Shown here piece by piece: positions 1,310 to 44,202 of a stretch of 64,000 nucleotides of DNA (positions are counted from its first letter, which is position 1; every line of letters begins with the position of its first letter). Where the stretch lies: NCBI GenBank assembly GCA_021463485.1, contig JAJTYJ010000002.1:32673-96672 (forward strand), read 5' to 3'. A program made the translations under genes and the position numbers. Source of the DNA: a bacterium. GTDB lineage: Bacteria; Patescibacteriota; UBA1384; 2-12-FULL-50-11. The notes under the pieces were generated by a model. It worked only from the letters and a program-made list of their open reading frames with translations, did not search any database and was not told the DNA's origin.

Positions 1310-1403
1310 TTTCCCCTCTTTATATTATTAGCCTAATGGCGTGTTGAGTTAGTGTCAAATATAACGCGTTGATACTTTGACCGGTTGCCGATACACTGGC
1401 TCC

Positions 1404-4321: not shown

Positions 4322-4838
4322 GGATTATAGTTTTCGAGGCAAGCGAAGTAACGAGCAGGTACTACTAGTCGTAAAACAGCATCCGTGGGTATTAATGCCG
4401 ATCGTTTGGGTTTGGTTAGTACTGACTGCGATTGTAGTTTTACTTGTCTGGAAGCTCGGGCTCTCAACGATAAGTTCGTATGCGATCTTTGGCGTACTTG
4501 GCTTTGGGCTGCTGTATAGTTTGTATCAGTGGTTTATCTGGAACAACAGCGACTATATTATTACGAACCAACGAGTTATTAAAATTGATCAAAACGGCTT
4601 GTTTAATCGCGAAATTTCCGAGGCCGAGATCGAACGAATTCAAGAGATATCAACAGAAATCAAAGGGCCGATCCGGACAATATTTAACTTCGGTCGAGTT
4701 AAAATCCAGACGGCTTCTAGTTACGGAAGAGTTGATCTAGAAGACGTAGTAGATCCATACGATATTCAACAGGAAATTGTACGGGTACAACGCTCGGTGA
4801 GCGAGTCGTCTTCTGACTCTCGAGTGACACTTCGCTAA
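4314..4838 (+). CDS. membrane protein with bacterial PH (YdbS/YdbT-like) domain
   Basis: Two N-terminal TM helices, then DYIITNQRVIKIDQNGLFNREISEAEIERIQEIS typical of the bPH_2 fold. Start overlaps the upstream stop by 8 nt. Confidence 0.5.
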   Translation: MSEDYSFRGKRSNEQVLLVVKQHPWVLMPIVWVWLVLTAIVVLLVWKLGLSTISSYAIFGVLGFGLLYSLYQWFIWNNSDYIITNQRVIKIDQNGLFNREISEAEIERIQEISTEIKGPIRTIFNFGRVKIQTASSYGRVDLEDVVDPYDIQQEIVRVQRSVSESSSDSRVTLR

Positions 4839-26056: not shown

Positions 26057-28919
26057 GTTTGTTGGTAAAAAATTTCCGTCGTTATTTGCGATGGAAGAGT
26101 CGGTGCTCGATTTTTGGCAACGAGACAAAACCTACGAAAAGTCGTTAGAGCAAACTAAAAATGGCGAGGTTTTCTCGTTCTACGACGGCCCGCCGTTTAT
26201 TACCGGCATTCCACACTACGCGACGCTGTTGCCAAGTATCGCCAAAGACGTCGTGCCGAGGTTCCAAACGATGAAAGGGCGTTTTGTACGTAGAACTTGG
26301 GGTTGGGATGTTCACGGATTGCCTGCTGAGAATCAGGTCGAGAAAAAACTCGGGCTGAAATCAAAAAAAGATATACAGACACTGGGTCTGGATAAGTTTA
26401 TCGAGGAGTGCCGTCAGTACGTTTCGGAAGTATCGGGTGCCTGGCGCTGGTATATCGACCATATCGGTCGATGGGCGGATATCGACAACGCGTATCGAAC
26501 CGACAATCTCAACTATATGGAGTCGGTGATGGCGATGTTTAAGCAACTGTACGAACAGGAATTAATTTACCGAGGCCGTCGGGTGTCGTTGTACTGTCCG
26601 CGCTGCGCTACGCCGCTGTCGAAATTTGAGATTACGATGGACGACGGGAACTACAAAGACGTCGAGGATCCAGCCGTTACGGTTTCGTTCCGACTTTTAA
26701 ACGACGATGTGTACCTACTTGCTTGGACAACGACGCCGTGGACGCTACCAGCCAACCTAGCGTTGGCAGTGGACGAGAACGCTGAGTACGTTAAGGTTTC
26801 AGACGGTACTAAACAGTACATTTTGGCGCACCAAGCGCTCGAGCGCTACCAGGACGGATCGCTCGAGGTGATAGAGTACCTCAAAGGTAGCTCGCTCGTA
26901 GGTGAGTCTTACGAGCCGCTTTACACTTTTTTGCCGATCAATGCGGACAAAGATTACAAAGTTCTGCCGGGAACATTTGTTTCGATGGACGAAGGTACCG
27001 GCATTGTTCATATCGCGCCAGGTTTTGGCGAGGACGATACCAAATTAGGCGAAGCGAACGGTTTATCGATGCACGAAACGCTCGACGCGGAGGGCCACTT
27101 TGTAACCGAGGTGAAGCCGTGGGCGGGGATGTATTACAAAAAAGCTAACGATCCGATCACGGAAGATCTTCGTTCGAGAAACCACCTGTTTAAAGAAGAG
27201 CGAATTACGCACTCATATCCGCATTGTTATCGTTGTCAGACGCCGCTTATCTACAAAGCTCAAGTTTCTTGGTATCTGCGTCTGGACCCAATTCGAGATC
27301 AGCTAATTGCGACCAATAAAGACATTAACTGGGTGCCGAAACACTTCGGACCCGGCCGGTTCTTGCACAATTTAGAGAATGCGCCCGATTGGTCGCTGTC
27401 GCGAACCCGTTACTGGGGCTCGCCGATTCCGGTGTGGCAGACCGAAGACGGTGAAATGTTTGTGGCGGGTTCGATCGCTGAGCTCGAGAAGCTCTCCGGT
27501 CAAAAAATTACCGATTTACACCGACCAGCCATCGATAATGTGGTTTTAACACTGCCCTCCGGCAAAAAGGCGACGCGCGTTGAAGAAGTACTAGACTGTT
27601 GGTTCGAGTCTGGCGCTATGCCGTACGCACAGGATCACTATCCGTTTGAAAATAAGCAGTTGTTCGAACGCCACTTTCCGGCGGATTTCATTATCGAGTA
27701 TACCGGGCAGTTGCGCGGCTGGTTTTACTACTTACACGTGCTCTCAAACGCCTTTCGAAAAAGCGTGGCTTTCAAAAACGTCGTCGTTACTGGGGTGCTT
27801 ATGGGCAACGACGGTCGCAAGATGAGCAAATCGTACGGTAACTATCCGGATCCGAAAGCGACAATCGAGAAATACGGCGCCGAGGCGATTCGACTGTATT
27901 TTATGGGCAGTAAAATTATGAGCGGCGAAGACGTAGCGATTACGGAAGACGAGATCCGTGAGCAATCGCGCTTACTGAATGTGTTACACAACAGTTATCA
28001 CTATTTTCTTACCTACGCAGCGCTTCACAGTTGGGAGCCAACTTCATTAGATAAAAGCAATTTACTCGATCGCTGGATTAGTACGCGGGCTGAACAGTTG
28101 GTTGACGAAATTAATAGCAATTTAAGCTCGCTTAGCCTTCAAGCCGCCACGAAAGCGATTCGGCCGTTTATCGAGGATTTGTCTACTTGGTATATCCGTC
28201 GCAATCGAGATCGTTTTGTTGCTGGCGACAAGGCCGCGCTCCAAACCCTCTACGAAGTAATGCATCTATTCAGTCGGGCGATCGCCCCGATTCTACCGTT
28301 CTCGGCCGAGGTAATCTTCCAAGGTCTCGAGCGCGCCGAACAATCTGTTCACCTCCAGTCGTTCCCTGAACCAAACGTCGTTGGCGTAGAGGAGAATCAA
28401 GAGCTACTAGAAAAAATGGAGCTGGTTCGTTCGATCTGCTCAAACGGTAATATGCTGCGAAGCCAAGCCGGTGTGTCGCTTCGCCAGCCGCTCGCCGCTG
28501 TCCGCCTTTTTGGCTACAAGGAACTTGAAAACGAACCAGAGTACCAAGCGATCATTACAGACGAGCTCAACGTTAAAGCCATCGAGTTTGGCCCGGTTAA
28601 AAAAAGTTGGGTTAAGTTGGAAGACCGCGGCAAAGAGATCGGACTTGATACTACAGTTACTGCCGAACTTGCTGCTGAAGGAAGATATCGTGAATTGCTC
28701 CGCAAGCTTCAAGATGCCCGCAAGAAGGCTGGTTTGAACGTCGGAGAGAGGGTCTCGGCTAAAATCTTTGCAGAAGGAAATGCTCTAGAAATTATAAAGC
28801 AGTTTTCTACTGATCTTACCAAGGCTGCTTCGCTCCAGAACCTTGAGCTACTCCCCGATAATTCTGAAGAATTAACCCAGCTTCCAGACGAAGACATCTG
28901 GTACAAATTCGGCAACTAA
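26043..28919 (+). CDS. ileS: isoleucyl-tRNA synthetase (type 2)
   Basis: FYDGPPFITGIPHYATLL aligns to the type-2 IleRS HIGH region. Also WGWDVHGLP, the editing domain, and KMSKSYGN. 958 aa. Confidence 0.9.
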   Translation: MPERKFVGKKFPSLFAMEESVLDFWQRDKTYEKSLEQTKNGEVFSFYDGPPFITGIPHYATLLPSIAKDVVPRFQTMKGRFVRRTWGWDVHGLPAENQVEKKLGLKSKKDIQTLGLDKFIEECRQYVSEVSGAWRWYIDHIGRWADIDNAYRTDNLNYMESVMAMFKQLYEQELIYRGRRVSLYCPRCATPLSKFEITMDDGNYKDVEDPAVTVSFRLLNDDVYLLAWTTTPWTLPANLALAVDENAEYVKVSDGTKQYILAHQALERYQDGSLEVIEYLKGSSLVGESYEPLYTFLPINADKDYKVLPGTFVSMDEGTGIVHIAPGFGEDDTKLGEANGLSMHETLDAEGHFVTEVKPWAGMYYKKANDPITEDLRSRNHLFKEERITHSYPHCYRCQTPLIYKAQVSWYLRLDPIRDQLIATNKDINWVPKHFGPGRFLHNLENAPDWSLSRTRYWGSPIPVWQTEDGEMFVAGSIAELEKLSGQKITDLHRPAIDNVVLTLPSGKKATRVEEVLDCWFESGAMPYAQDHYPFENKQLFERHFPADFIIEYTGQLRGWFYYLHVLSNAFRKSVAFKNVVVTGVLMGNDGRKMSKSYGNYPDPKATIEKYGAEAIRLYFMGSKIMSGEDVAITEDEIREQSRLLNVLHNSYHYFLTYAALHSWEPTSLDKSNLLDRWISTRAEQLVDEINSNLSSLSLQAATKAIRPFIEDLSTWYIRRNRDRFVAGDKAALQTLYEVMHLFSRAIAPILPFSAEVIFQGLERAEQSVHLQSFPEPNVVGVEENQELLEKMELVRSICSNGNMLRSQAGVSLRQPLAAVRLFGYKELENEPEYQAIITDELNVKAIEFGPVKKSWVKLEDRGKEIGLDTTVTAELAAEGRYRELLRKLQDARKKAGLNVGERVSAKIFAEGNALEIIKQFSTDLTKAASLQNLELLPDNSEELTQLPDEDIWYKFGN

Positions 28920-28963
28920 GTACCGCTTTCGCTCGAGGTAAGTTCGGTTACAATAAGGACGGA

Positions 28964-29635
28964 ATGATGACTACGGCGCAGTACGTCGCTGCGTTTATTT
29001 CTTGGGTACTCTTAAAGACTTTTACACGTTTTGAAATTCTAGGTAGAGAAAATCTTAAAGAGGTGTCGCGCCCATTTATTGTTGTATCTAATCACGAGAG
29101 CCATCTAGATCCGCAGTTAACAGGAGTAGCGTTACTGTATCGACCGTCGTTATATCCACTAAGGTTTATGGCGAAAAACGAGCTGTTCCGAATCCCGTTA
29201 TTAAATGTAGTTATTTGGTTGTTAGGGGCGTTCAAAGCGCATCGCAAACAAGGAATAGGTAAGTCGCTTCTAACCCCAACTAAAATCCTAGAAAAAGGCG
29301 GCTCCGTTATTCTGTTCCCAGAAGGAAAAATTATTCCTGAGCGACCAAAGCTTGGTGAGGGGCGACGCGGCGCAGCGATTTTGGCGCTAACTACCCGGGC
29401 AGCGCTTTTGCCAATCTCGCTTCATACACCGCACGGCTTAACGCCGTGGCGATTTATTGCGACTCGCCCAAAGATTGTTATTCGTATTGGCACACCGTTT
29501 TACCTGAACAACTTAGATTACCCAGATTTCTCCGATGAAAATACGTACAGAGCTACCCAAGAAATAATGCAAAAAATCGCGGATTTATACTACGAACACG
29601 ATTATTTACCCGTAAATAAAAAAAGCCCCAAATAG
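28964..29635 (+). CDS. plsC: 1-acyl-sn-glycerol-3-phosphate acyltransferase-like (PlsC family)
   Basis: HX4D motif VVSNHESHLDP and the FPEGK motif. Confidence 0.8.
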   Translation: MMTTAQYVAAFISWVLLKTFTRFEILGRENLKEVSRPFIVVSNHESHLDPQLTGVALLYRPSLYPLRFMAKNELFRIPLLNVVIWLLGAFKAHRKQGIGKSLLTPTKILEKGGSVILFPEGKIIPERPKLGEGRRGAAILALTTRAALLPISLHTPHGLTPWRFIATRPKIVIRIGTPFYLNNLDYPDFSDENTYRATQEIMQKIADLYYEHDYLPVNKKSPK

Positions 29636-29639
29636 GGGC
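29616..29639 (-). terminator. rho-independent terminator for the minus-strand three-gene operon (hairpin shared with plsC 3' end)
   Basis: GCCCC-AAATA-GGGGC hairpin at 29625-29639. An A7 run on the plus strand becomes a U7 run after the hairpin on the minus strand. Confidence 0.55.
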
Positions 29640-29643
29640 GGGG

Positions 29644-30255
29644 TTACTGGTCGAGTAGCCTTAAAACTTGTCGAACATTCTTACGAACGCTCAACTGGCC
29701 GTTGATGTGATGAAGAGTTGGGAAGTGTTTGCACACTTTACGGTATTGCTCATAGGAGCGAAGGATACTCTCATAGTCCTCAATAGTTGCTGGCAGTCCA
29801 TATGTGCTTCTTCTTTTTGCTCGTTCTATTACTCGACGAGCACATAGCACTGGGTCAGCCATAAATAAGAATATCTCTGAGGGGACAATAGCGCCCGCGC
29901 ACTCGTTCGCTGATAGTATTGCCTCCGGCTGTTGACCATCAAACGACTGGTAAACCATGCTAGTCCAAACAGATCGATCAAAGATGACTATGTTACTTGC
30001 AGAAATTTTGTCTGCTAGGCTAGCGTGAACCTCGGCTCTACATTCAGCAATCTCCTTCACCTTCCTAGCTGTGAATAGCTTTTCTTCGTGCGGAAGATTG
30101 TGCCAAGCAGAGATGTACGAGCGAAGAGGTTCGTGCTCTTTCTCGTTAATTCGTAGGATGTTCAAGCCCCTTTTGTCTAGTATTGATGATACTATCCTGC
30201 AACACGTGGTCTTCCCGGCGCCACTGACGCCCTCAAATGCGATTATTCTCGGCAT
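29644..30255 (-). CDS. thymidylate kinase-like P-loop nucleotide kinase
   Basis: Walker A IAFEGVSGAGKTT. Tmk-like blocks LFTARKVKEIAECRAEVHASL, IVIFDRSVWTSMVYQ and ADPVLCARRVIERAKR. Island-type codon usage (AGA/AGG/ATA/CTA). Confidence 0.7.
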   Translation of the reverse strand: MPRIIAFEGVSGAGKTTCCRIVSSILDKRGLNILRINEKEHEPLRSYISAWHNLPHEEKLFTARKVKEIAECRAEVHASLADKISASNIVIFDRSVWTSMVYQSFDGQQPEAILSANECAGAIVPSEIFLFMADPVLCARRVIERAKRRSTYGLPATIEDYESILRSYEQYRKVCKHFPTLHHINGQLSVRKNVRQVLRLLDQ

Positions 30256-30258
30256 ATA

Positions 30259-30849
30259 TTACCTCTTAAGGTGCAGAGTGTCGTTTTGAGTTATTACGTC
30301 AAAGCGACCATCGCTCAATAATATTTCTGTAATTGAGCAATGGTCGATTTGATTAGAGAAAATTGCATCTTGTGCGCTTTGCCCACGCAGCTGCCCAATT
30401 AGCAATTTAATAAATGCGCCGTGACCAACGACAAGTAAATCTCTAGCGTTCTCACTGGTTAAAATTGCTAAGAACTCTCTTATTCTTTGCTGAACATCAC
30501 TAATACTCTCCCCACCTGGGGGCTTTCTCGTCTCAAAGTCTCCAGCAAGTTTGTCCCATACTACTTCCCCAAACTTCTTTCCTTTAAATTCTCCAGCGTC
30601 TTTTTCTCTGAGGAGCTTTAAATACCGAATTATGTGCGTTCTTCCAGAAAGAAGGTATTTAGCTGTTTCCCTAGTTCTTGCCAGATCACTTACCAGTGCC
30701 TTATCAAACCGATACTTGTCAAGGCGTCTTCTCAACATCCTTACTTGCTCTTTGCCTTCAGCAGTAAAGCCGCCGTAGCTATGTCCGTGAAAGACTCGAT
30801 CTCTGTTTTCAACAGTTTCTGCGTGACGAACAATTATTATCCGCATCAT
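30259..30849 (-). CDS. histidine phosphatase superfamily (phosphoglycerate mutase-like) protein
   Basis: N-terminal RHAET catalytic motif (IIIVRHAETVENRDRVFHGHSYGGFTAEGKEQ) and a distal VVGHGAFI His. Confidence 0.8.
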   Translation of the reverse strand: MMRIIIVRHAETVENRDRVFHGHSYGGFTAEGKEQVRMLRRRLDKYRFDKALVSDLARTRETAKYLLSGRTHIIRYLKLLREKDAGEFKGKKFGEVVWDKLAGDFETRKPPGGESISDVQQRIREFLAILTSENARDLLVVGHGAFIKLLIGQLRGQSAQDAIFSNQIDHCSITEILLSDGRFDVITQNDTLHLKR

Positions 30850-32240
30850 ACTTGGAAATTGGTTTGAGAGTTACCAGCGCTCTTCGCTATCCTAGCCAAC
30901 TGTTTGTAGCGCTCATCTATTTTTGAATTCAATATCAAGCGCAAGGTTTGTTTTGAGGTGTGTGGGTGCTGAGCGACTAGCTTAAGTATGTAGCCGTACT
31001 CCATTTTCCCAAGAACGAATTCAGTAATGCTATGAATAATTGACTGTGGAAGATCATTCAAGCTCAACATACTTGCCATGAATTCCCAGCTCCACTGTTT
31101 TTGTTTACTAATAGACTGTAGTAACTTTTGCGAGTCAATCTTTTCTCCGATCAGCCATAAATTGGCCAGAATAATTTCTGGGCGGTTGTCGGTAAGCGGT
31201 TTAAGAAGTTTGTTCTTTGCAGCTTGCTGCCTTGCTCGTATTATCAGCTTTCCTCTATAGCCAAAGTTTTCAGTAATAAAACCATTCACCAACTTTTCCT
31301 TTATTTTTGCGATTGTACGCATTGAATCGGTAAATTTGTAGAAAGAGCTGTCTGGGAAAAGGTGCCGAATTGTTGTCGATTTTTGTAGTGATTGTAAGTT
31401 AGTTTCTATAAGCGATAGCCCATTATAATCAGTACCTTTATTAATTTTGAGCGCTTCAGAACGCAGCAACATTACGTTTGAAATTGAGCGTAACAGTTTT
31501 TCATACTCTGATCTGTTTACACTTCCATGTTCAAAAAGTAGGGATAGTGAGTTTGTGATACTAATCGGGGGTTGTATCCCTACACTGGTTGCAGTGTGCC
31601 GTGCGATCCAAATAAAAAATAATATGTCCCTCGTTCCGCCAGCCGAGTATTTAACATTAATATAACCGTTTTTTCTTCTCTTTGAGTAGTAATAGTCATA
31701 GCAAAACAGCTGAAAAAGAATGTTTCGCTTGGACCGTTCTAGTGTATTTTGCTTCTTCACCATAGCCCTAAAACTCTTAATCAAGCTTGGATCACCGCAC
31801 ACAATTTTAGACTCGAGTATTTGGTTGCCTTCGACAATGTTGGTTGAGCAAATCTTTGACAGCAGCCTGATTGTCCCCCAATCTGGTATATCAACCTTCG
31901 AATAGCCGAACTTGGCCATCTCGATAGAGAACTGCTTCCTAAACTCTCTTTCTTGTGTCGATTCGCTTCCTGTAATAATTAGGACATCTGCGTCCGAATA
32001 TGCTGCCATTTCCTGACGACCCGCAGAGCCATATATACCTACAGCGACCCTACACTCTGGGAATTTGGCGTAAAGCGAGTAGTAAATGTGTTCAACAGTC
32101 AAGCGGAAGTTTAATGAGTAGTATTTTGCTAATTCGAGACCAACGTATTGGCTCTGAGGAATGATATCCGAGTCTCTCAGAAAAACCGACTGTAATATAT
32201 GGCCGTCTATTCTTTTTTTGGAATCAAATTTCTGTTTCAT
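30846..32240 (-). CDS. GlnD/GlnE-type nucleotidyltransferase domain protein (DUF294-like NTase + substrate-binding region) with C-terminal unknown region
   Basis: Pol-beta NTase signature VAVGIYGSAGRQEMAAYSDADVLII (hG[GS]...D.D). Downstream KYSAGGTRDILFFIWIARH matches the conserved GlnD/GlnE K..GGxRDIEF block. 464 aa. Confidence 0.65.
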   Translation of the reverse strand: MKQKFDSKKRIDGHILQSVFLRDSDIIPQSQYVGLELAKYYSLNFRLTVEHIYYSLYAKFPECRVAVGIYGSAGRQEMAAYSDADVLIITGSESTQEREFRKQFSIEMAKFGYSKVDIPDWGTIRLLSKICSTNIVEGNQILESKIVCGDPSLIKSFRAMVKKQNTLERSKRNILFQLFCYDYYYSKRRKNGYINVKYSAGGTRDILFFIWIARHTATSVGIQPPISITNSLSLLFEHGSVNRSEYEKLLRSISNVMLLRSEALKINKGTDYNGLSLIETNLQSLQKSTTIRHLFPDSSFYKFTDSMRTIAKIKEKLVNGFITENFGYRGKLIIRARQQAAKNKLLKPLTDNRPEIILANLWLIGEKIDSQKLLQSISKQKQWSWEFMASMLSLNDLPQSIIHSITEFVLGKMEYGYILKLVAQHPHTSKQTLRLILNSKIDERYKQLARIAKSAGNSQTNFQV

Positions 32241-32375
32241 CTAGGACATTTTCGAGTGTAAGATGCAACTGGATCCATACTCTTGCGGTACTGTTCCGGT
32301 ATAGATTTAGTTGGGCGAACTCCTGGATGATCGTGCTGCCAGGAAGGAAACTTCCTGAGTACCTTACAGGAGACT

Positions 32376-32459
32376 ATGATGAATTGCCCGAATTGCGATG
32401 AAGAGATGATAGAGGATGACGACGGTTGGGTTTGCCCAAACTGTGGCTACGAAGAGTAA
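32376..32459 (+). CDS. 27-aa zinc-ribbon micro-ORF (MMNCPNCDEEMIEDDDGWVCPNCGYEE)
   Basis: ATG 32376 is preceded by GGAG at a spacing of about 8 nt. Two CPNC (CxxC) motifs 16 residues apart; highly acidic. Below the ORF-track size cut-off. Confidence 0.4.
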   Translation: MMNCPNCDEEMIEDDDGWVCPNCGYEE

Positions 32460-32504
32460 CCAGCTTGGTCGCTGGTGGATACGGCGACCAAGTATAATTA
32501 TTAT

Positions 32505-32897
32505 ATGCAACCTATAAGATATAAATATGGAGAACATAGGCAGGCTTTTTTGGCCGGGCAGCTGGTTGTATATGCGTTATTAATTAGAAACAGAACAAGA
32601 GACATCGCATGTCTAGACACTGGACTTAATAGAAACGATATTAGTAACGGAGGCTTTGTAGAGCTAAAGCAACTTGCTAAGGGGTATGGCTGTGAAGTTG
32701 CATTGAGTAAGCATGGCGAAGACAGATACTTACTACATGTCTACAGGAAAGACGCCGCAGAAAAGATGCGGGAAATGGATAGGGTTATACAGAGTTATCG
32801 CAGCGGGAAATTGTCCCGAGAAAGTTACGTCTGCCGCACTGGGGAAATATACGGCTATCCAGGTGAATCGATTAAATGGTTTCTCAAGAAAAAGTAA
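32505..32897 (+). CDS. hypothetical protein (~130 aa)
   Basis: ORF with island-type codon usage and no recognisable motif. An alternative GTG start is at 32475. Confidence 0.35.
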   Translation: MQPIRYKYGEHRQAFLAGQLVVYALLIRNRTRDIACLDTGLNRNDISNGGFVELKQLAKGYGCEVALSKHGEDRYLLHVYRKDAAEKMREMDRVIQSYRSGKLSRESYVCRTGEIYGYPGESIKWFLKKK

Positions 32898-32919
32898 TGA
32901 TTTCTATTTTTCCTAATTA

Positions 32920-34089
32920 ATGACTGAAATTCATTTTGTAAGGCTACCTCGAAAAAGCAATGAAGTATTTATTCGCGTTTTTACCAATGCGGGCCGGGAT
33001 AGCGAGAATAGGGATAATCAAGGGATTGGTCACCTACTTGACCACTATATAAACGGCGGGATTTTTCAGAAACATTACAATCTGGATACTAACGCATACA
33101 TCGATAGGGACTTTCTGTGGTTCTCGCTGAATACGACAAAGAAAAAACTTTTTAAGCAGTTGGAAAATTTTTTGCTATATGTCACTAAGCCAGATTTTAC
33201 TCAAGAGGAATTGCTGAATTTCGAGAAGCAGGCGTTAATCAACGAAATGAAATCCAGTGAAGCGGTGTTATACAACAAGCTATTTCAAGGTGTGGTCACG
33301 AAAACGCTCGCACATTATAGTAGTGTTTATAGGGAGATCGAGAATGTGCCTAGGTTTCAGCTTGGTGAGCTTGCACAGTACCATCGGGGGATAATAAATC
33401 AAGGCCCAGTCACGGTTATAGTCGGATATAACGGTTTGTCAAAAAAAGATCGACACCACATCTCTTCTTTGGTTAGCAGTAACTTTCCAGATAATTCTAA
33501 AAGTGTCATTCCTAGTTTCGTGACAGTTGGACCTCGCATTGAAAGTGTTGAGGAATTACCAAGTGATGCTAAGGGACAAGTACTAATTTACTTGGCGATG
33601 AAAACGTTTGGGTACTGCGATGAAAGAGAGAAGAGAATAGCCGTAAACCTTGCACTGCGTGAGCTGCGTGGACATTCAAAACACAGTCCGTTCCTTATGT
33701 TACGAAAGTTAGGTGTCTACTCGTTGGATTACAATCACTGGATAGGCCTTAGTTATGGGCAAGCCGTTATATCAATTGTATGTATGCCTCATGTGGTTGA
33801 TGAAGCGACAAATATACTAATGAGCTCGCTGAAGCATTTATCAGAGATGGGGTTGTCTAAGGCTGTAATAGAAAAGCATAAGAGAAGAAATAGTGAATAT
33901 TTTAAACAAATACAACAGAACAATGGTGAGTACTTCAGTAACGCACTAGACGATATTTTATACGAAGGCAAAGAGTTGAATTACAAGGAACATATGATTA
34001 GTTTCAAAAATATCACGCCAGAGATGACCAGAAGGATATATTCTGAGATATTCGCACCAAGCAACCTTTCAAAAATTATTTATAAGTAA
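32920..34089 (+). CDS. M16-family peptidase homolog with variant zinc motif (HxxDH)
   Basis: GIGHLLDHYINGG aligns with the GIAHFLEHMVFKGT of the canonical M16 gene at 1404, but the Glu is replaced by Asp. 389 aa, matching the single-domain M16 size. Confidence 0.55.
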   Translation: MTEIHFVRLPRKSNEVFIRVFTNAGRDSENRDNQGIGHLLDHYINGGIFQKHYNLDTNAYIDRDFLWFSLNTTKKKLFKQLENFLLYVTKPDFTQEELLNFEKQALINEMKSSEAVLYNKLFQGVVTKTLAHYSSVYREIENVPRFQLGELAQYHRGIINQGPVTVIVGYNGLSKKDRHHISSLVSSNFPDNSKSVIPSFVTVGPRIESVEELPSDAKGQVLIYLAMKTFGYCDEREKRIAVNLALRELRGHSKHSPFLMLRKLGVYSLDYNHWIGLSYGQAVISIVCMPHVVDEATNILMSSLKHLSEMGLSKAVIEKHKRRNSEYFKQIQQNNGEYFSNALDDILYEGKELNYKEHMISFKNITPEMTRRIYSEIFAPSNLSKIIYK

Positions 34090-34094
34090 TTGTA

Positions 34095-35474
34095 CTAATT
34101 GGAGTGTCTTTCCAGGTAGCTTAGCCTCCATGCTAAGTCGTGGATTGCTTCTTTCTTTAACGCAATGAAAGCGTTTCTGGATGTAGCTGTATAGTCGCTC
34201 ATCGACTCAATTCTAAATAACGGCTTTCGTGTTTGGTTCTCGCCGGCGAGTATCTTCATCGGGTACCCGTCGAACCCCAACTCCCAAAGAATCTGACCCT
34301 CCTCAGCACTGTCGAGCGCCAACATCTTAAGCATTTGATACTTCAGATTCTGCTTCGTGCGCCTTGGGTAATCTGACTGTTTAAAGTATTCGATCGCTTC
34401 ACGAACAATAGCCTGGGCTGCGTCTACTAATTTTCCATTATTGGCAGCTTGTTTCGTCATTTTAAATTTAGTTAGAGGATTTACTTCTAGCTTTTCTGGT
34501 ACATGAAAATCTTTTATTAAGTTGCTGACGTCCGAATCTGTAATTAGTGAGAATCCTTTTCCGGTGTTATATAGTAAGTCCCTTAAGAAAGTTGTGAACC
34601 AATCATAGAAGCTGTGAGAGAAGATATAAAAGAACACAAATGCACCAAGTATTGCTTGAGCGTTTCGACCCATTTCAGGAATAATATGTTGGCTGAAAAC
34701 CATAGCTGGTAATAATGTTATTAAGGCAATCGCGCAAGACAAGTAGATAAACTCTTTAATTTCAAACAACCCCTCAATGTCGGAGATTAGGCCATAGTAG
34801 AAAATCGACACTGCAATAAAAAATACAGGCACAATAAGCAGGGGTGAGGTTGAGTAGACGGCGAGGAAGTAGTTGTCGGTTTGATATACATAGACTAAAA
34901 ACAACCCTGAAATAATGTAGAGCACAGAGGCAATGATGGGTAATAAAAACTTAGTTCTCCTTCGACTATCATTCTCTTTACTGCGCGCAGTTATGTAGGT
35001 GTAGAGTGATACAGACATAGCCCACACCACGATTAGCGCTATTGCATTAAACAACGGACCCCTCTTGTAAAACTCACCAAAACTCTCGTCTGAAATTAAT
35101 AGGGAGCTGTAGTCTATAACTAGATTTGAAGTACTGGAGAGTATTATGAGCAGAATAGCGATGGAATATATAAACCATAATTGTATCCAAATGGATTTTT
35201 TGTAATTCTGTGTTACTAGTAAAGCAAAATGGAGCAGCAGGGGGATGGGCAAGATGTATGACCAATTCGTAAGATGGTACAGGAATATTGAGGTGAGCTG
35301 GTCATCTGTGAAAAGAGGGGTAATCGCATCCACGACGAGTATGTACCAACTCAAACTAAAAAGAAAAAAGAAAATCACCCAAGCAGTTTTGCTCCGTATA
35401 TTCCTACTAACCAAGTAAACACCAACCCAAAACAAAAAAGCACTAACGATAAACTGGAACCAGAATAGAGACAT
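34095..35474 (-). CDS. 7TM receptor-like membrane protein (HisKA_7TM-like N-terminal domain) with ~170-aa cytoplasmic C-terminal domain of unknown function
   Basis: About 7-8 TM helices. The N-terminal LVSRNIRSKTAWVIFF resembles the FSNPIAAVNRVFGLL of the adjacent kinase's sensor. The C-terminal soluble domain has no kinase motifs. Confidence 0.55.
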   Translation of the reverse strand: MSLFWFQFIVSAFLFWVGVYLVSRNIRSKTAWVIFFFLFSLSWYILVVDAITPLFTDDQLTSIFLYHLTNWSYILPIPLLLHFALLVTQNYKKSIWIQLWFIYSIAILLIILSSTSNLVIDYSSLLISDESFGEFYKRGPLFNAIALIVVWAMSVSLYTYITARSKENDSRRRTKFLLPIIASVLYIISGLFLVYVYQTDNYFLAVYSTSPLLIVPVFFIAVSIFYYGLISDIEGLFEIKEFIYLSCAIALITLLPAMVFSQHIIPEMGRNAQAILGAFVFFYIFSHSFYDWFTTFLRDLLYNTGKGFSLITDSDVSNLIKDFHVPEKLEVNPLTKFKMTKQAANNGKLVDAAQAIVREAIEYFKQSDYPRRTKQNLKYQMLKMLALDSAEEGQILWELGFDGYPMKILAGENQTRKPLFRIESMSDYTATSRNAFIALKKEAIHDLAWRLSYLERHSN

Positions 35475-35497
35475 TTCTTATATAACTTATAGTAATT

Positions 35498-36508
35498 ATG
35501 TTACTTTTATATCATATGGCAGAAAGAATTAACGAAAATACCGCTGGTGAGGCAGTTTTTAATCCTATAGACCAGGATTTCTTAGGAGAGTCATACCCGG
35601 AGATTTTAAAGGATAAAAACTCAGCTACACGTGTAGGAGGTGATGAATTTGAGAAGCCAGCCTCGATCTTTGGACTCCGGATTCTATTTATTTGGATAAT
35701 TACAGTGATCACAGCAACCAAGAAAGGTTTTTTGGGAAAGAATTTAAAGACCAACAGTTTTTGGTTTGACGGTATTAGCCAAATTTGTCGTGACGTTAAA
35801 GATAATGCTTATAGCTGGAGGGCACTAGAGATAATATACAACCTGCCTAACTACCTCTCTAAAAAAATGTCACTTGATAGAATCGCTCTTTATTGGAATG
35901 GTCTTGAAAATGCTAAGGCTGTTAGAAACAGGTTAAGATTAACAAAAGAAATCCTCAGTAGAGAAATTGTAAAAAGAAAATCACAAGATACGATACGATT
36001 ACTATCGATAGCCAGCGGATCTGCCCGTGCGGTATTAGAAACACTGGCTGAGGTCGTTGATAAACATCAGGTTAGTTTCGAGTTTAGACTCCTTGATCTC
36101 GATCCTACTGCGTCCGTTTATGCACAAAACTTAGCAACCGAGCTAGGCGTTGCTAATCGCTGCAAAATGATAGTGGGGAGTACGACTGATATGAAAAAAC
36201 TTCTAGGCAACTATAGACCAGATATTATCGAGATGGTAGGGTTTCTTGAATATAGAAATAGAGAGAAGGCAGTTAACCTACTAAAGAAGATAAAAGAATT
36301 ACTTGCACCAGGCGGGAGTATTATTTTTAGTCAGGTTAAACCAAATAGAGAAATGTATTTTCTAAGATTCGTAATGAATTGGCCGATGATTTACAGAACT
36401 GAGGAGGAGTTCAGGAAGATCCTTGTTGAGAGCGGCTATTATGATTACGAATTAGTGTCTGAGCCAATAGGAATACATATGGTTTGCAGCTTTCGTAAAG
36501 AAGGTTAA
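35498..36508 (+). CDS. class I SAM-dependent methyltransferase
   Basis: LLSIASGSARAVLE (motif I-like) and LAPGGSIIFSQV (post-I/II). Stop TAA overlaps the ATG of the kinase (TAATG). A possible alternative start is at 35516. Confidence 0.65.
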   Translation: MLLLYHMAERINENTAGEAVFNPIDQDFLGESYPEILKDKNSATRVGGDEFEKPASIFGLRILFIWIITVITATKKGFLGKNLKTNSFWFDGISQICRDVKDNAYSWRALEIIYNLPNYLSKKMSLDRIALYWNGLENAKAVRNRLRLTKEILSREIVKRKSQDTIRLLSIASGSARAVLETLAEVVDKHQVSFEFRLLDLDPTASVYAQNLATELGVANRCKMIVGSTTDMKKLLGNYRPDIIEMVGFLEYRNREKAVNLLKKIKELLAPGGSIIFSQVKPNREMYFLRFVMNWPMIYRTEEEFRKILVESGYYDYELVSEPIGIHMVCSFRKEG

Positions 36509-38781
36509 TGCAACAACTCATCGCGTTTACAGGGTTGATTATAGCAGTTGCAAGCCTAGCCCTAGGAGGACTAGTAGTATTCAGTAACCCAATCGCTGCT
36601 GTGAATAGGGTGTTTGGTCTTTTGGGTCTCTCACTTGCAGTGTGGGGATTCGGTTACTATAACTCCTTCTCGGCCACCGACCCGATCGCTGCACTTTTTT
36701 GGGCAAAAGTATTCATGTTGGGGGCTGCGTTCATTCCAGTCTTCTACTTGCATTTTGTTGTACTATTTATAAATAGATATCCAAAGTTTAAATTTTCGAT
36801 TGTATCTGGTTATATTCTTTCTACAACATTTGCCTATGCAAGCCTGGTTTCCGAAAACTTTATATCTCGAGTCGCCCCAAATAGGTGGTTCACTTTCTGG
36901 CCAATAGCTGGTGATTTTTATATATATTTTCTTGTTTTCTTCTTTGCTGCCCTTGTTTTCTCCATTTACTTATTATCAAGAAAGTCGGGGTTAAAAGCGG
37001 TAGATTTACTGCAGGAAAAGTATCTAATTATTGGGGCGACCGTAGGGTTGTTGGGCGGGGCAACAAACTATCCTCAGTGGTATGGCATCGATATACCACC
37101 AGTTGGTAACATACTTGTTCTTGCTTTTCCGGTTTCTATTACATATGCGATCTTAAAAACCAGATTATTCAACATAAAGGTATTGCTAACAGAAGTTGCA
37201 GTTGGCGCTGTGGTTTCTATTGCCTTGGTCCAGACTATTGCGCTTTCAGGTAGCCAATTAGTCACAGGGGGCCTCCTGACTTTATCACTTGCGGTCGGCG
37301 GAATTGTTCTAATTAAATCGGTTCGGACGGAAGTTGATAAAAGGGAAGAAATAGAGAAGTTAGCGAAGGAAAAAATCGAAACTCTTAAAGAGCTTGAGCA
37401 ACGCAATAAAAGCTTAGCAGCGTTGCAGCGCGTATCTGATATCGTCCTGAATGAGATGGATATGAAGGCGATGTCGCAGAAAATTCTCGACGAAATCCCT
37501 GTTCAACTAGAAAACTGCGTTGGCGCCTTCCTTTCGATCGTCCGCGGCGGTCACCTTGTCGCCTATACCGTCTCGACCAACACCTTTACCCGCAAAGTTT
37601 ACTCACTGGTAGGCGAAGATTTAGAGAAATATAGCTACCCAATAAAGAAGGAGTTTAACGGTCTACACGAGGTGCTCATCGAAAAAAGGATGGTCGAGGG
37701 TGACAGTCTGGATGCGTTTATCTGCCCGCCGATTAGTCGTCCGGTGGCGAAAACGCTACAGCGCTTGATCGGAGCCAAACATTTAGTAGCGCTGCCGCTC
37801 TATGCCAGCGGCGAGCCGCTTGGGGTAATGATGTTTGTTTATAAGGTCGAGAAAAGTCGGCTCCACGGGAAAGACGTGGAGATCGCTAAGGCGATCGCCG
37901 ACGACATGAGCTTGGCGATTCAACGCGCTCAGGCGTTCCAAAAGCTTAAAGACGCTAACGAATACCTTAGCCAATTAGACAAGATGAAGGACGAGTTTAT
38001 CTCGATGGCTTCGCACGAGCTCAATACGCCGTTAGCAGCGATCGAAGGCTATCTTTCGATGGTTCTCGACGAGGGGATGGGGAAAGTCGACGCTAAAAGC
38101 AAAGAGTATCTATCTCGGGCGTACGCCAGTAGTAAGCGTCTGGCTGAGCTGATTCTCGACCTTTTGAACGTCTCCCGAATCGAGCAGGGTCGTTTGAAGA
38201 TGAAGTTTTCCCAGGTAAGTATGGTTGAGCTAGCGGAGAGCGTAGTACATGAGTTACAGATTAAAGCTGATAGTAAAAAGATTTATTTGAAGATCGAAGC
38301 GGAAAAAGGCTTGCCAAAACTCTGGTGCGATCCCGACCGCATCCGTGAAGTAATCGTTAATCTAACCGGTAACGCGTTAAAATTCACCGACAAAGGCGGA
38401 GTTACAATCAGCATCGGTAAATCCGAGGGCGGTTTTATCCGGGTAACAGTTGTCGACACCGGTCGCGGTATCGCCAAGGAAGATCAAAAGAAGCTTTTCC
38501 AGAAGTTCTCTCAGGTTAAGCGTGAGATCGACGAACACCAGGGAACCGGACTCGGTCTGTATATCAGCAAGAACTTCGTGGAGTTGCACAAGGGTAAGAT
38601 TTGGGTCGAGAGCGAAGCGGGCAAGGGCTCGAAGTTTATCTTTGAGATTCCGCTATTGAAAGAAGCGCCGAAACAGCTTGAAGGGGCAATCTTAGAGAAG
38701 CCAATTACCGAAGCGCAAATTGAAGTCGGCACCAAAGACGTACCGACAATTATCGCCGAATCAGTAGACGGTAAAATTTAA
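36508..38781 (+). CDS. sensor histidine kinase (7TM sensor + GAF-like + HisKA + HATPase_c)
   Basis: N-terminal 7 TM helices. H-box ISMASHELNTPL, N-box NLTGNALKFT, G1 DTGRGI, G2 GTGLGL. Confidence 0.85.
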   Translation: MQQLIAFTGLIIAVASLALGGLVVFSNPIAAVNRVFGLLGLSLAVWGFGYYNSFSATDPIAALFWAKVFMLGAAFIPVFYLHFVVLFINRYPKFKFSIVSGYILSTTFAYASLVSENFISRVAPNRWFTFWPIAGDFYIYFLVFFFAALVFSIYLLSRKSGLKAVDLLQEKYLIIGATVGLLGGATNYPQWYGIDIPPVGNILVLAFPVSITYAILKTRLFNIKVLLTEVAVGAVVSIALVQTIALSGSQLVTGGLLTLSLAVGGIVLIKSVRTEVDKREEIEKLAKEKIETLKELEQRNKSLAALQRVSDIVLNEMDMKAMSQKILDEIPVQLENCVGAFLSIVRGGHLVAYTVSTNTFTRKVYSLVGEDLEKYSYPIKKEFNGLHEVLIEKRMVEGDSLDAFICPPISRPVAKTLQRLIGAKHLVALPLYASGEPLGVMMFVYKVEKSRLHGKDVEIAKAIADDMSLAIQRAQAFQKLKDANEYLSQLDKMKDEFISMASHELNTPLAAIEGYLSMVLDEGMGKVDAKSKEYLSRAYASSKRLAELILDLLNVSRIEQGRLKMKFSQVSMVELAESVVHELQIKADSKKIYLKIEAEKGLPKLWCDPDRIREVIVNLTGNALKFTDKGGVTISIGKSEGGFIRVTVVDTGRGIAKEDQKKLFQKFSQVKREIDEHQGTGLGLYISKNFVELHKGKIWVESEAGKGSKFIFEIPLLKEAPKQLEGAILEKPITEAQIEVGTKDVPTIIAESVDGKI

Positions 38782-38852
38782 ATAACGCCGATTGCCCCAC
38801 CCAATTTGCAAAGTCAATCATATTTGTTAGGGTAGAAACAGAAAGGGAACTA

Positions 38853-39287
38853 ATGGCAGATACATACAAAAGCATACTACTTGTTGATGACGACCTGACG
38901 CTTCGAGAGATGTACGCCGAGCGTCTCAAAGCTGAGGGCTTTAGTGTTGAGATGGCAAAAGACGGCGAAGAAGCAATTAGAAAAGCAACCGATTTACGGC
39001 CGAATCTAATTTTGCTTGACGTGATGATGCCGAAAATTAACGGTCTCGATGTATTAAAGCGGTTGAAAGAGCAAGAGGGAACGGGTGAGATCCCCGTTAT
39101 CGTCTTAACAGCACTTATCCAGGATCGTGAAAAGATGGAGAGCATTACTCGCGGCGCGGACGATTACATCGTTAAATCTGAGACGATGCCAGGTGACGTT
39201 ATCCAAAAAATCCACGCGGTACTTGAGAAGAAAGCGGCTGGCGAGGCTAAACCATCTGGTGAGACTCCTGCGGCGCCGGCACAGTAG
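38853..39287 (+). CDS. stand-alone response regulator receiver protein
   Basis: SILLVDDDLTLREMY...PNLILLDVMMPKINGLDV...PVIVLTA...K. No output domain. AAGGG RBS. Confidence 0.85.
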   Translation: MADTYKSILLVDDDLTLREMYAERLKAEGFSVEMAKDGEEAIRKATDLRPNLILLDVMMPKINGLDVLKRLKEQEGTGEIPVIVLTALIQDREKMESITRGADDYIVKSETMPGDVIQKIHAVLEKKAAGEAKPSGETPAAPAQ

Positions 39288-42987: not shown

Positions 42988-44202
42988 TTACCCACCAAAG
43001 TTTTGAACTAAGCCGTAAATCGGCCCAAGCACGGCTGCTACTACAAACGCGACACCGACACCCATAATAATCAGTAGCAACGGCTCCAGTAACGTTGACA
43101 GATTTTTTGAGGTCGTATCGACCTCCTTGTCGTAGAATGTGGCAATTTCAAGCAAAACTCCTTCCAACGTTCCCGACTCCTCACCAAGACTTGTTAGCTG
43201 TGAAACCATTGGGGGGAACAGCGGTTCACGATCAATCGCTGCTGAGAGCGACTTACCGCTTTCAACAAGCTTGTCGATTCGCTGGAAGGCAGCGTCGTAG
43301 TGAACGTTGCTAATTGTTTTGCGAATAATGCGGATCGACAGCAGTATCGGCAAACTTGCTTTAATTAACATCGCTAAGGTTCGAGAGAAGCGCGCCATAT
43401 AGACTTTTTTGGTTAGCGAACCGAATACCGGCACAGAGATCTTTAACCGATCGTAAAACGCCTGACCGGTTTTCGTTTTAAACCACAGCCGCATACCGTA
43501 AAAGGCGGCGATCACTATCGGCAAAATTACTAGAAAGTACTCTCGAATTGCCGTACTAGTGCCAAGCAAGATCCTGGTTAGTATCGGCAGCTCTTGCCCG
43601 GAATCGGCGAAAATACCTTCGAGACTCGGTAATACAAAGAAAACAATTAGCCCGGCGACACCGACTAACGAAAGAAGAATGATAATCGGGTAGATCATCG
43701 CTCCTTTAATTTTCCCAATCAAGTCAGCTTCCTTTTCCTGTTGATCGGCAAGATTGAGCAGTACATCCGAGAGTTGCCCAGTTTCTTCGCCGGCCTTAAC
43801 AACAGCGGTGTAAATTTCGGAGAAGACTTTTGGATATTTCATCATCGCTTTTGAAAGCGTTTGGCCGCCTTTGAGTTGTGTCGAAAGCGATTCTATTACT
43901 TCTTTAAAGTACTTCTGTTGAGTTTGACGCTTGAGCGCGTCGAGCGATTTAACGATTGGTAGCCCGGCCTTAATCATGACCGACAGTTGCCGAGTAAAGA
44001 TTATCTTTTCTTTAAGCGAAACCCGCTTCGTTAGAAAACCGATATTTAGCTTATGTCCTTGCGCGACCCCTTCGTTTAATTCGAGTACCAAGAAACCTTC
44101 GGCTCGTAGTTTCTTGGTCGCCTCGGTCACGCTCTCAGACTCGATCTGACCTTTTTGAGGCTTACCGCCAGACTTTTTGACCGTGTAACTGTAGATCGGC
44201 AT
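42988..44202 (-). CDS. pilC: type IV pilus platform protein PilC (GspF family)
   Basis: Two GspF repeats (FTRQLSVMIKAGLPIVKSL... and ARFSRTLAMLIKASLPIL) and three TM helices. Confidence 0.9.
   Translation of the reverse strand: MPIYSYTVKKSGGKPQKGQIESESVTEATKKLRAEGFLVLELNEGVAQGHKLNIGFLTKRVSLKEKIIFTRQLSVMIKAGLPIVKSLDALKRQTQQKYFKEVIESLSTQLKGGQTLSKAMMKYPKVFSEIYTAVVKAGEETGQLSDVLLNLADQQEKEADLIGKIKGAMIYPIIILLSLVGVAGLIVFFVLPSLEGIFADSGQELPILTRILLGTSTAIREYFLVILPIVIAAFYGMRLWFKTKTGQAFYDRLKISVPVFGSLTKKVYMARFSRTLAMLIKASLPILLSIRIIRKTISNVHYDAAFQRIDKLVESGKSLSAAIDREPLFPPMVSQLTSLGEESGTLEGVLLEIATFYDKEVDTTSKNLSTLLEPLLLIIMGVGVAFVVAAVLGPIYGLVQNFGG

Follow-up and report, generated by a model that had tools for sequence, protein, structure and literature searches.

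A mosaic low-GC locus of a patescibacterium in which an enzyme gene is exchanged together with the sensor halves of two putative membrane receptors

The window analysed here is a stretch of 64,000 nucleotides from a patescibacterial contig (JAJTYJ010000002.1 of assembly GCA_021463485.1), and our subject is an AT-rich block at about 29,640–37,400 within it, which begins beside the acyltransferase gene plsC and ends inside a sensor histidine kinase (HK) gene. A previous sequence-only reading had taken this block for a horizontally acquired island. We consider the block as a whole to be best explained as a hypervariable mosaic locus whose core is a cassette of an enzyme and its cognate receptors, with alternative cassettes representing pherotype-like signal types, and we give this explanation a probability of roughly 60%. 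Its structural and evolutionary part is largely shown by the comparisons described below; the signalling function is one that we infer from gene linkage, co-variation and analogy.

Alternative cassettes in a single species

The core of the locus is an allelic cassette at positions 34612..37347, delimited by haplotype alignments, that consists of the seven-transmembrane (7TM) half of a gene encoding a 459-aa protein (here called TM459), an enzyme gene, and the 7TM half of the HK gene. TM459 lies on the minus strand; its variable 5′ part (34612..35474) encodes a domain resembling the 7TM domain of G protein-coupled receptors (GPCRs) and its conserved 3′ part (34095..34611) an output domain resembling sigma-70 region 4. 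The protein looks like a membrane-tethered one-component regulator, in which a 7TM sensor would be joined to a sigma4-like helix-turn-helix. The enzyme gene, on the plus strand (35498..36508), encodes a 336-aa class I S-adenosylmethionine (SAM) methyltransferase of family Methyltransf_20 (PF12147) that, as judged by eye, has a hydrophobic N-terminal segment. Its stop codon overlaps the HK start at 36508. The variable 5′ part of the HK gene (36508..37347, plus strand) encodes a HisKA_7TM sensor (PF16927) of about 280 aa and the conserved 3′ part (37348..38781) carries the GAF, HisKA and HATPase_c domains found with Pfam; the scores of 43.1 bits for PF16927, 64.8 for HisKA and 104 for HATPase_c, against cutoffs of 28.6, 26.9 and 26.4, identify the protein as a HisKA_7TM kinase. 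Co-oriented with both genes and 72 bp downstream of HK lies a gene for a 144-aa single-domain response regulator (RR; PF00072; 38853..39287, plus strand) that is invariant across haplotypes and is followed by murA. Both 7TM sensors are almost wholly membrane-embedded bundles. The divergent starts of TM459 and the methyltransferase gene are only 23 bp apart (35475–35497), so the promoters of these two genes must lie inside neighbouring coding sequences.

In the collection that we searched, 52 blocks contain the exact RR sequence according to the index, and we read 23 contigs among these for haplotypes of the same species. The same-species metagenome contigs represent two haplotypes, both of which match the window up to position 34611 and again from 37348 onward. 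The window, BroJett034 and contig L094 carry the 2736-bp Methyltransf_20 cassette; contigs L007, L090–L093, L095 and L103 carry an unalignable cassette of 3071 bp that encodes an acyltransferase of the FeeM/Acetyltransf_5 type and a ThiF-family enzyme of 249 aa. The best NCBIfam match of the FeeM-like enzyme is TIGR03694, at 85.5 bits under a cutoff of 111.95. The contrast between cassette and flanks is stark: the flanks of window and L091 match over 3185 bp to the left (100.00% identity) and 11940 bp to the right (99.90%), and between the two cassettes there is no blastn alignment at all. At the protein level, the HKs of the two haplotypes are 100% identical from about residue 281 on, whereas residues 1–280 share only about 25–30% identity in a global alignment and the first 270 residues give a BLASTP score of 21 bits (E = 0.02). 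Likewise, the C-terminal ~140 residues of TM459 (from about residue 320) are identical and the 7TM domains share about 35% identity. Each set of cassette enzymes thus carries its own sensor halves of HK and TM459, joined in frame to identical output domains, and since the swapped cassette includes the HK sensor domain, the right edge of the block (37347/37348) lies within the HK gene.

Each cassette type was found in many independent samples and on diverged backgrounds; the right flanks of strains with the methyltransferase cassette are about 3–4% apart. Cassette type therefore does not track strain background, as is characteristic of replacement by recombination. An assembly artefact can be ruled out, since both haplotypes occur in many independent assemblies with their genes intact and in frame. 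We also considered whether the TM459 and HK 7TM domains within one cassette are recent paralogs, and rejected this because BLASTP between them was non-significant. An exact-anchor scan of JGI metagenomes for further same-species haplotypes gave no match.

Exchange is not confined to the cassette. In L092 and L094, 528 bp encoding ORFs (open reading frames) of 66 and 88 aa replace window positions 32373–34110, where the window encodes a protein resembling M16 peptidases, and either of these modules pairs with either cassette, all four combinations being found. Contig L092 is 99.75% identical to the window in the far right flank, about 91% over the three genes at the left of the block (the trio, described below), and only 72–79% over window positions 28578–29577 (L092:600–1600), which comprise the 3′ end of ileS and plsC. 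L094 has an additional divergent stretch inside TM459. With breakpoints at about 28600/29600, 32372/3, 34110/1, 34611/2 and 37347/8, the block consists of at least four segments of independent history in one species. In the kinase-core region (37348–38916), L094 and L009, two strains of the methyltransferase type, are only 85.7% identical to each other, each being about 96–97% identical to the window, which suggests a further mosaic tract inside the 3′ half of HK.

Recurrence in other Patescibacteria and co-variation of sensor and enzyme

The TM459 homologs that have names all come from Patescibacteria metagenome-assembled genomes (MAGs) or unclassified bacteria and are unannotated proteins of 445–480 aa. 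The PF12147 enzyme has 417 homologs, and the few named ones are from MAGs of the candidate phyla radiation (CPR) or from unclassified bacteria. For nine distinct TM459 loci the available sequence extended 5.5 kb or more upstream, and at eight of these an HK is transcribed divergently from the TM459-family gene with varied enzymes encoded between the two. The intervening gene encodes Methyltransf_20 in L104 and a UbiA prenyltransferase in L117 and L121; a PaaK-like ligase is accompanied by a methyltransferase in L122, by ThiF and a Glu/Leu/Phe/Val (ELFV) dehydrogenase in L137, and by ThiF and an epimerase in L106; L108 has a FabA/FabZ-like protein and a Methyltransf_23. Related loci also include an MFS transporter. 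In addition, two independently chosen Methyltransf_20 homologs (39–41% identity; L110 and L111) are encoded directly upstream of HisKA_7TM kinases. Altogether, an accessory enzyme gene directly 5′ of a multi-TM kinase gene, usually with a divergent 7TM–sigma4-like gene, was found at ten other Patescibacteria loci. By these comparisons the right part of the block is a locus type of several Patescibacteria lineages whose content is exchanged, rather than an insertion. Our literature searches on PF12147, on quorum sensing in Patescibacteria and on hypervariable kinase loci in CPR bacteria returned no prior description of this locus type or of TM459; HisKA_7TM itself came up in only two papers, both on two-component systems.

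The kinase sensors resemble one another according to the enzyme with which they are paired. We compared the first 270 aa (sensor) and the last 260 aa (kinase core) of several HKs with those of the window. Among kinases paired with Methyltransf_20, the sensor of L104 is 45% identical (177 bits; core 73%), that of L110 41% (161 bits; core 43%) and that of L111 40% (149 bits; core 36%). In contrast, the GNAT-paired kinase of L012 has a core 75% identical to that of the window and a sensor only 26% identical (45 bits), and in the same-species haplotype L007, with FeeM and ThiF, the identical core stands beside a sensor that barely aligns. TM459 behaves similarly, in that the 7TM domains of the window and L104 (both with Methyltransf_20) are 48% identical and those of L007 and L106 (both containing ThiF) 47% identical, against the 35% seen within the species. 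In these alignments, a small sample, the kinase sensor domains cluster by partner enzyme and not by phylogeny.

Several of the related loci have features of their own. Two or three tandem TM459-family paralogs stand beside one kinase in L117 (5568–9705), L122 (5538–8341) and L137 (6956–9751), and in L104 an 85-aa GIY-YIG ORF (4355–4612) lies between HK and the response regulator. In L123, a TM459 homolog with no nearby kinase has, about 1.4 kb upstream, a 224-aa ORF (1989–2663) that resembles an IS-type transposase by eye only.

Composition, edges and left-hand modules of the block

In 1-kb windows, GC content is 0.369–0.438 at positions 30001–37000 and about 0.44–0.55 in the remaining window, and overall it is about 0.40 in the block and 0.49 in the background. 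For codon usage we compared the seven block ORFs plus HK codons 1–280 with 43 other genes of the window. The AGA and AGG codons (AGR) account for 87 of 147 arginine codons in the block (0.59) and for 114 of 883 in the other genes (0.13; Fisher p = 7e-32), and ATA for 75 of 213 isoleucine codons (0.35) against 120 of 1148 (0.10; p = 1e-17), which is a 3.5- to 4.5-fold rise in the synonymous use of AGR and ATA. The sequence-only reading had described the block as AT-rich with raised AGA/AGG, ATA and CTA usage; the 1-kb windows and codon counts bear this out except for CTA, whose share of leucine codons is not significantly raised (0.19 against 0.15, p = 0.11). GC at the first, second and third codon positions is 0.455, 0.352 and 0.417 in the block and 0.559, 0.383 and 0.525 in the other genes, and the summed synonymous chi-square between the two sets is 497 on 41 degrees of freedom. 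An island-versus-background codon log-ratio is positive for all seven block genes and negative for every other gene; being trained on these very genes, it is descriptive only. Within HK the codon signature flips at about codon 280, or about position 37348, in agreement with the right edge placed earlier at about 37,400. The weakest compositional case is the Tmk-like gene at the left end (GC 0.466; AGR 8 of 18).

This composition is not peculiar to the alleles present in the window. The alternative segments of other strains all have a GC content of 0.39–0.42, and AGR makes up 0.57 of arginine codons in the FeeM/ThiF cassette (against 0.10), 0.74 in the module of L012 (against 0.07) and 0.58 in L104 (against 0.31). 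In L012, GC falls to 0.37–0.45, from 0.52–0.57, across the GNAT gene and the 5′ part of HK. The HK sensor region is lower in GC than the kinase core in six of six other lineages examined, and in five of six the adjacent enzyme genes have less GC than the sequence around them. The low GC and the preference for AGR and ATA are thus a property of the locus, whichever allele sits there. Soluble enzymes are shifted as much or more (methyltransferase GC 0.381, histidine phosphatase 0.423), and together with the synonymous-codon shift this means that the GC dip is more than a matter of amino-acid composition.

At the left edge, the hairpin noticed earlier is real (29625–29639, GCCCC-AAATA-GGGGC with an A/T run) and, lying between the convergent plsC and Tmk-like genes, is an ordinary bidirectional terminator for the two. 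No tRNA gene was found within about 9 kb of the block, no Rfam match in or beside it, no bracketing repeats beyond chance-level 14–27-mers, and no integrase or transposase among the Pfam, NCBIfam and PHROG families matched by block proteins; these scans uphold the earlier statement that tRNA, integrase and direct-repeat boundaries are missing. Viral, phage and plasmid searches with the block proteins were negative except for one generic glnD match, and a known defence system was considered and set aside, as PADLOC gave weak matches only (VakA, PDC-M51B, mad2 and mad8, all at or below 27 bits). The gene content listed by the sequence-only reading matches what our profile searches of the block ORFs gave.

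Synteny with a relative places the block in context. The isoleucyl-tRNA synthetase (IleRS) of the window is 99% identical to that of BroJett034 (Patescibacteria), and the next species representatives are at 61–65%. One of these, L012 (IleRS 64%), keeps the order hisS-ileS-plsC...HK-RR-murA-g245-pilN-pilM and has none of the seven block genes; the same site holds a 601-aa ORF, a 161-aa ORF and a GNAT acetyltransferase gene, the last directly upstream of HK. The proposal of an insertion between plsC and HK is only partly borne out: L012, a distant relative with other genes at this site, keeps the flanks without the block genes, and the right part is a recurrent locus type with exchanged content. 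Similarly, of the proposed horizontally acquired island there stands an accessory, compositionally distinct block that is absent from syntenic L012 and exchanges its parts, and there falls the notion of one island acquired once. The mechanism of mobilisation had been called unknown; homologous recombination in conserved flanking coding sequence is the simplest one, given that no mobile-element gene, tRNA or repeat was found. The right boundary is sharp and agrees with the position proposed. On the left, the second allele of plsC in L092 shows that the hypervariable zone reaches into plsC and so beyond the boundary reported earlier. Parts of the block do bear signs of horizontal exchange: the nearest relatives of the cassette are in distant CPR lineages, and the trio recurs in L112 and a Nanoarchaeota MAG.

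The left neighbour plsC (28964..29635, plus strand) encodes a PlsC-like acyltransferase (PF01553, 74.6 bits). Converging on it is the trio, an overlapping three-gene operon on the minus strand. Its first gene (30846..32240) encodes a GlnD/DUF294-like nucleotidyltransferase (NTase) of 464 aa with weak matches to PF08335 and PF03445; the protein fails as a GlnD PII uridylyltransferase (32–34 bits against cutoffs of 519–1299) and aligns over the NTase region alone. The second (30259..30849) encodes a 196-aa histidine phosphatase of branch 1 (PF00300, 127.6 bits) whose best NCBIfam match, CobC-like, is under cutoff. The last (29644..30255) encodes a 203-aa Tmk-like P-loop kinase that meets the family level of PF02223 (62.8 bits, cutoff 27) and fails the dTMP kinase equivalog TIGR00041 (62.5 bits, cutoff 83.25). 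The NTase is rare: at its sensitivity, the search gave five clusters in 5.8e9 sequences, of which the nearest is 39% identical and one comes from Nanoarchaeota. Sequence searches of the PDB with this protein returned nothing beyond a kanamycin-NTase motif, and those with the methyltransferase and the M16-like protein nothing, or at most the same motif. The three genes also stand together in two other MAGs. In L112 (MAG assembly GCA_964368935.1) the trio converges directly on the gene of a TM459 homolog with 79% identity in the C-terminus; in a MAG of Nanoarchaeota (GCA_030018575.1; L114:1170–3785) it adjoins a thermosome gene and has a GC content of 0.349 against 0.489 for that gene. As judged from these homologs, the trio seems to be common to two groups of ultra-small symbionts across domains, a DPANN archaeon and a bacterium, and as a separate and rare unit it is probably the part of the block that best fits a horizontally mobile module. 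Our guess is that its chemistry probably acts on nucleotides.

Divergent from the trio, on the plus strand, is the replaceable middle module (32373..34110, between the breakpoints at 32372/3 and 34110/1), a third, optional unit. It begins with a predicted 27-aa zinc-ribbon micro-ORF (32378..32459; MMNCPNCDEEMIEDDDGWVCPNCGYEE) preceded by AGGAG, a shared ribosome-binding site that is retained just left of the 32372/3 junction; the matches of the micro-ORF to zinc-ribbon Pfam families are all below the gathering score. Directly 3′ of it, a hairpin search found a hairpin with a 12-bp stem (32463..32493), a possible terminator or attenuator. Next is orf140 (32475..32897), called as 115–140 aa depending on the assembly, for which no family was found in Pfam or NCBIfam. 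No homologs of the micro-ORF, orf140 or the 66- and 88-aa ORFs were found in any other collected locus.

The module ends with the M16-like gene (32920..34089), whose 389-aa product has HLLDH in place of HxxEH. The N-domain (PF00675) scores 28.2 bits, above the cutoff of 22.3, and the C-domain 20.2 bits, below the cutoff of 23. The subfamily is small (85 representatives of 1.84e9), and its nearest clade keeps HxxDH, with H38, H42 and E109 invariant; we read these residues as the likely zinc ligands. The protein would thus be a divergent M16 relative outside canonical HxxEH membership, and it appears to be a specialised rather than a decayed enzyme. It has a weak likeness to a canonical M16 of L119 (E = 0.007). 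A canonical M16 peptidase of 434 aa with an HFLEH motif is encoded elsewhere in the window (1377–2681, plus strand), making the HxxDH protein of the block an extra, specialised paralog.

Candidate function, rival explanations and known systems

In the explanation that we favour, it is homologous recombination within the conserved coding sequence of the flanks, and not a mobile element, that would exchange the segments. The cassette enzyme or enzymes would make or modify a small molecule, probably lipid-like or amino-acid-derived, which the co-inherited 7TM domains would recognise; HK would pass the signal on by phosphorylation, and TM459, as a membrane-tethered regulator, would pass it to transcription. 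Each cassette would then stand for one specificity type, much like a pherotype, of a signal that the cell itself produces. A wider proposal, which we advance tentatively and would sooner doubt than assert, is that Patescibacteria own an undescribed modular family of signalling systems for self-produced small molecules, each with a variable synthase cassette and two GPCR-like 7TM receptors (HK and the sigma4-type regulator), and that natural populations keep exchangeable specificity types by joint swaps of the synthase and both ligand-binding domains.

Several observations weigh against this explanation. The sigma-4 assignment of the TM459 output domain is a modest structural match, and Pfam gave no family. 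The TM459 homolog of L119 has no kinase within 5.5 kb, and L012 has enzyme and kinase with no TM459 homolog. The co-variation is drawn from four pairs of Methyltransf_20 and kinase and two ThiF-type TM459 pairs; a second FeeM-type locus was not found among the loci compared, and the HK sensor of L007 is left with no clean partner class. Methyltransferase and HK sensor of L094 are 98% identical to those of the window, yet the TM459 7TM domains share only 59% identity, so that this receptor can vary independently of the enzyme. Finally, amino-acid composition would by itself lower the GC of 7TM-coding DNA to some extent.

That last point leads to the least credible of the alternatives, namely that no horizontal exchange took place and that low GC and rare codons reflect membrane-protein composition, weak expression or relaxed selection on non-essential genes. 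In its favour, all lineages examined have less GC in the 7TM-coding parts than in the kinase cores, and the block proteins are enriched for Phe, Ile, Tyr and Asn. As a sole cause it is contradicted by the shift of the soluble enzymes, by the fall in third-position GC and the rise in AGR and ATA use, by alleles that are unalignable between strains with 99.9–100% identical flanks, and by the nearest relatives of the sensor lying in distant lineages; composition may nonetheless contribute to the 7TM portions. It is very unlikely, too, that one island of 7–8 kb came in a single event from a donor of lower GC and was inserted by some mobile mechanism. Such an event would account for the strong and sharply bounded compositional shift, for the absence of all seven genes from syntenic L012 and for the rare and patchy NTase. 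It is largely refuted by the four or more segments with different histories, with all module combinations in one species, and it fits poorly with a right boundary inside an intact gene that has an in-frame alternative 5′ allele, with a TM459/enzyme/HK architecture in several Patescibacteria lineages, with the shared composition of alternative alleles and equivalent modules elsewhere, and with scans that gave no integrase, tRNA, repeat, phage or plasmid link.

The main rival accepts the same cassette structure and differs in what the enzymes do: they would modify a cell-intrinsic envelope or membrane lipid by methylation, N-acylation or prenylation, the 7TM proteins would be intramembrane feedback sensors, and the variation would come from phage or host-surface pressure. 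We think this unlikely, though deserving of serious attention, since it accounts for enzyme–sensor co-variation equally well. The locus lies between plsC, for a lipid acyltransferase, and murA; UbiA, FabA/FabZ-like and Acetyltransf_5/FeeM-type N-acyltransferase proteins occur at related loci; the sensors are almost entirely embedded in the membrane; the N-terminal segment of the methyltransferase is hydrophobic by eye; and the variation of TM459 in L094 in the absence of any change of enzyme is as expected of a surface-exposed target under diversifying selection. Against it, the PaaK-like ligase, ThiF, amino-acid dehydrogenase and epimerase look more like small-metabolite synthesis, and two dedicated receptors per enzyme would be more typical of signalling. 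Polymorphic bacteriocin loci under two-component regulation are well known, and the cassette might in principle make an antagonistic small metabolite or modified peptide (bacteriocin-like or microcin-C-like), HK and TM459 serving autoinduction or immunity sensing and the polymorphism reflecting antagonism and immunity types. Across related loci there are indeed ThiF, GNAT, methyltransferase, M16 peptidase and an MFS transporter, and the Cys-rich micro-ORF with its own hairpin and the M16-like protein adjoin the cassette. We nevertheless regard this as improbable: the swapped cassette has no precursor peptide, the module with the micro-ORF and M16-like gene assorts independently of it, ThiF, judging from its length only, appears to have no peptide-clamp extension, and the window locus has no exporter.

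The signalling explanation has precedents in other bacteria. In Bacillus subtilis, comQXPA is highly polymorphic, with a variable signal-binding membrane domain of ComP and a conserved cytoplasmic domain (PMC4008528). Both systems have a gene for a modification enzyme followed by a multi-TM HK and a response regulator, and both have within-species specificity groups; UbiA, in the equivalent position in L117 and L121, is a functional echo of the isoprenyl transferase ComQ. They differ in that the present cassette has no ComX-like precursor and none of its enzymes matched a polyprenyl-synthetase (ComQ-type) family in Pfam, the sensor belongs to HisKA_7TM and not to the ComP type, the RR has no DNA-binding domain, a second, divergent 7TM–sigma4-like receptor co-varies with the cassette, and the host is a CPR bacterium. 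In the agr locus of Staphylococcus aureus, the hypervariable segment runs from within AgrB through AgrD into the sensor half of AgrC, its breakpoints lying inside genes and the kinase core being conserved. A breakpoint inside the kinase gene is shared with the present cassette, but agr is peptide-based (AgrD/AgrB) and the variable unit here holds small-molecule enzymes. No Pfam match to AgrB, AgrD, ComX or polyprenyl synthetase was obtained among the cassette and block proteins. Because the defining proteins of comQXPA and agr are absent from the cassette, the relationship is one of analogy and not of membership.

For the pairing of a methyltransferase with a membrane kinase, phcBSR of Ralstonia is the nearest functional precedent; there the SAM-dependent methyltransferase PhcB makes methyl 3-hydroxymyristate or methyl 3-hydroxypalmitate and the HK PhcS senses it (PMC8578825, PMC9197120). 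The phc system has no 7TM–sigma4 partner, and the Methyltransf_20 of the window and PhcB may share only the class I SAM fold. O-antigen and capsule loci are low-GC, rare-codon alternative cassettes between housekeeping genes that are replaced via recombination in the flanks, with diversity spilling into the flanks. The plsC allele of L092 fits such flank diversity; the differences lie in the content, here two receptors and one or two enzymes and not glycan synthesis, and in breakpoints that fall at domain boundaries inside receptor genes. TIGR03694, the family of acyltransferases associated with PEP-CTERM/exosortase, has relatives among the synthases of N-acyl amino acids and of autoinducers, and a link to a two-component system; the present locus, by comparison, has no exosortase system.

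CPR bacteria, or Patescibacteria, make up a large share of bacterial diversity and have tiny genomes and obligate partner-dependent lifestyles, and to our knowledge almost nothing has been described of sensing or signalling in them. The recurring operon of enzyme, 7TM kinase and 7TM–sigma4-like regulator is a candidate communication or recognition system of this group, and if our explanation is true, it would mean pheromone-type diversification in ultra-small, host-dependent bacteria. The allele swaps, which cut exactly at the boundary between sensor and output, are natural chimeras for locating specificity residues, and the enzyme–sensor pairs are open to testing in heterologous hosts with no need for culturing. 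For genome scans, the lesson is that a sharply bounded low-GC 'island' with an edge inside a gene need not be a mobile insertion; it can be an allelic cassette that recombination maintains.

Two further observations concern other parts of the window. At 419–1309 on the minus strand, a 296-aa protein has an N-terminus that by eye resembles Phd/YefM antitoxins and a very long proline-rich tail with a run of 11 prolines, which accounts for the strong GC and AT skew of the first kilobase. The type IV pilus ATPase (MshEN/T2SSE; 44202–46097, minus strand) is 631 aa with an N-terminal HU/Bac_DNA_binding Pfam match or 615 aa with none, according to the assembly (L090 and L093 against L089 and L091), which may come from different start-site calls or from a genuine HU-like extension of the N-terminus.

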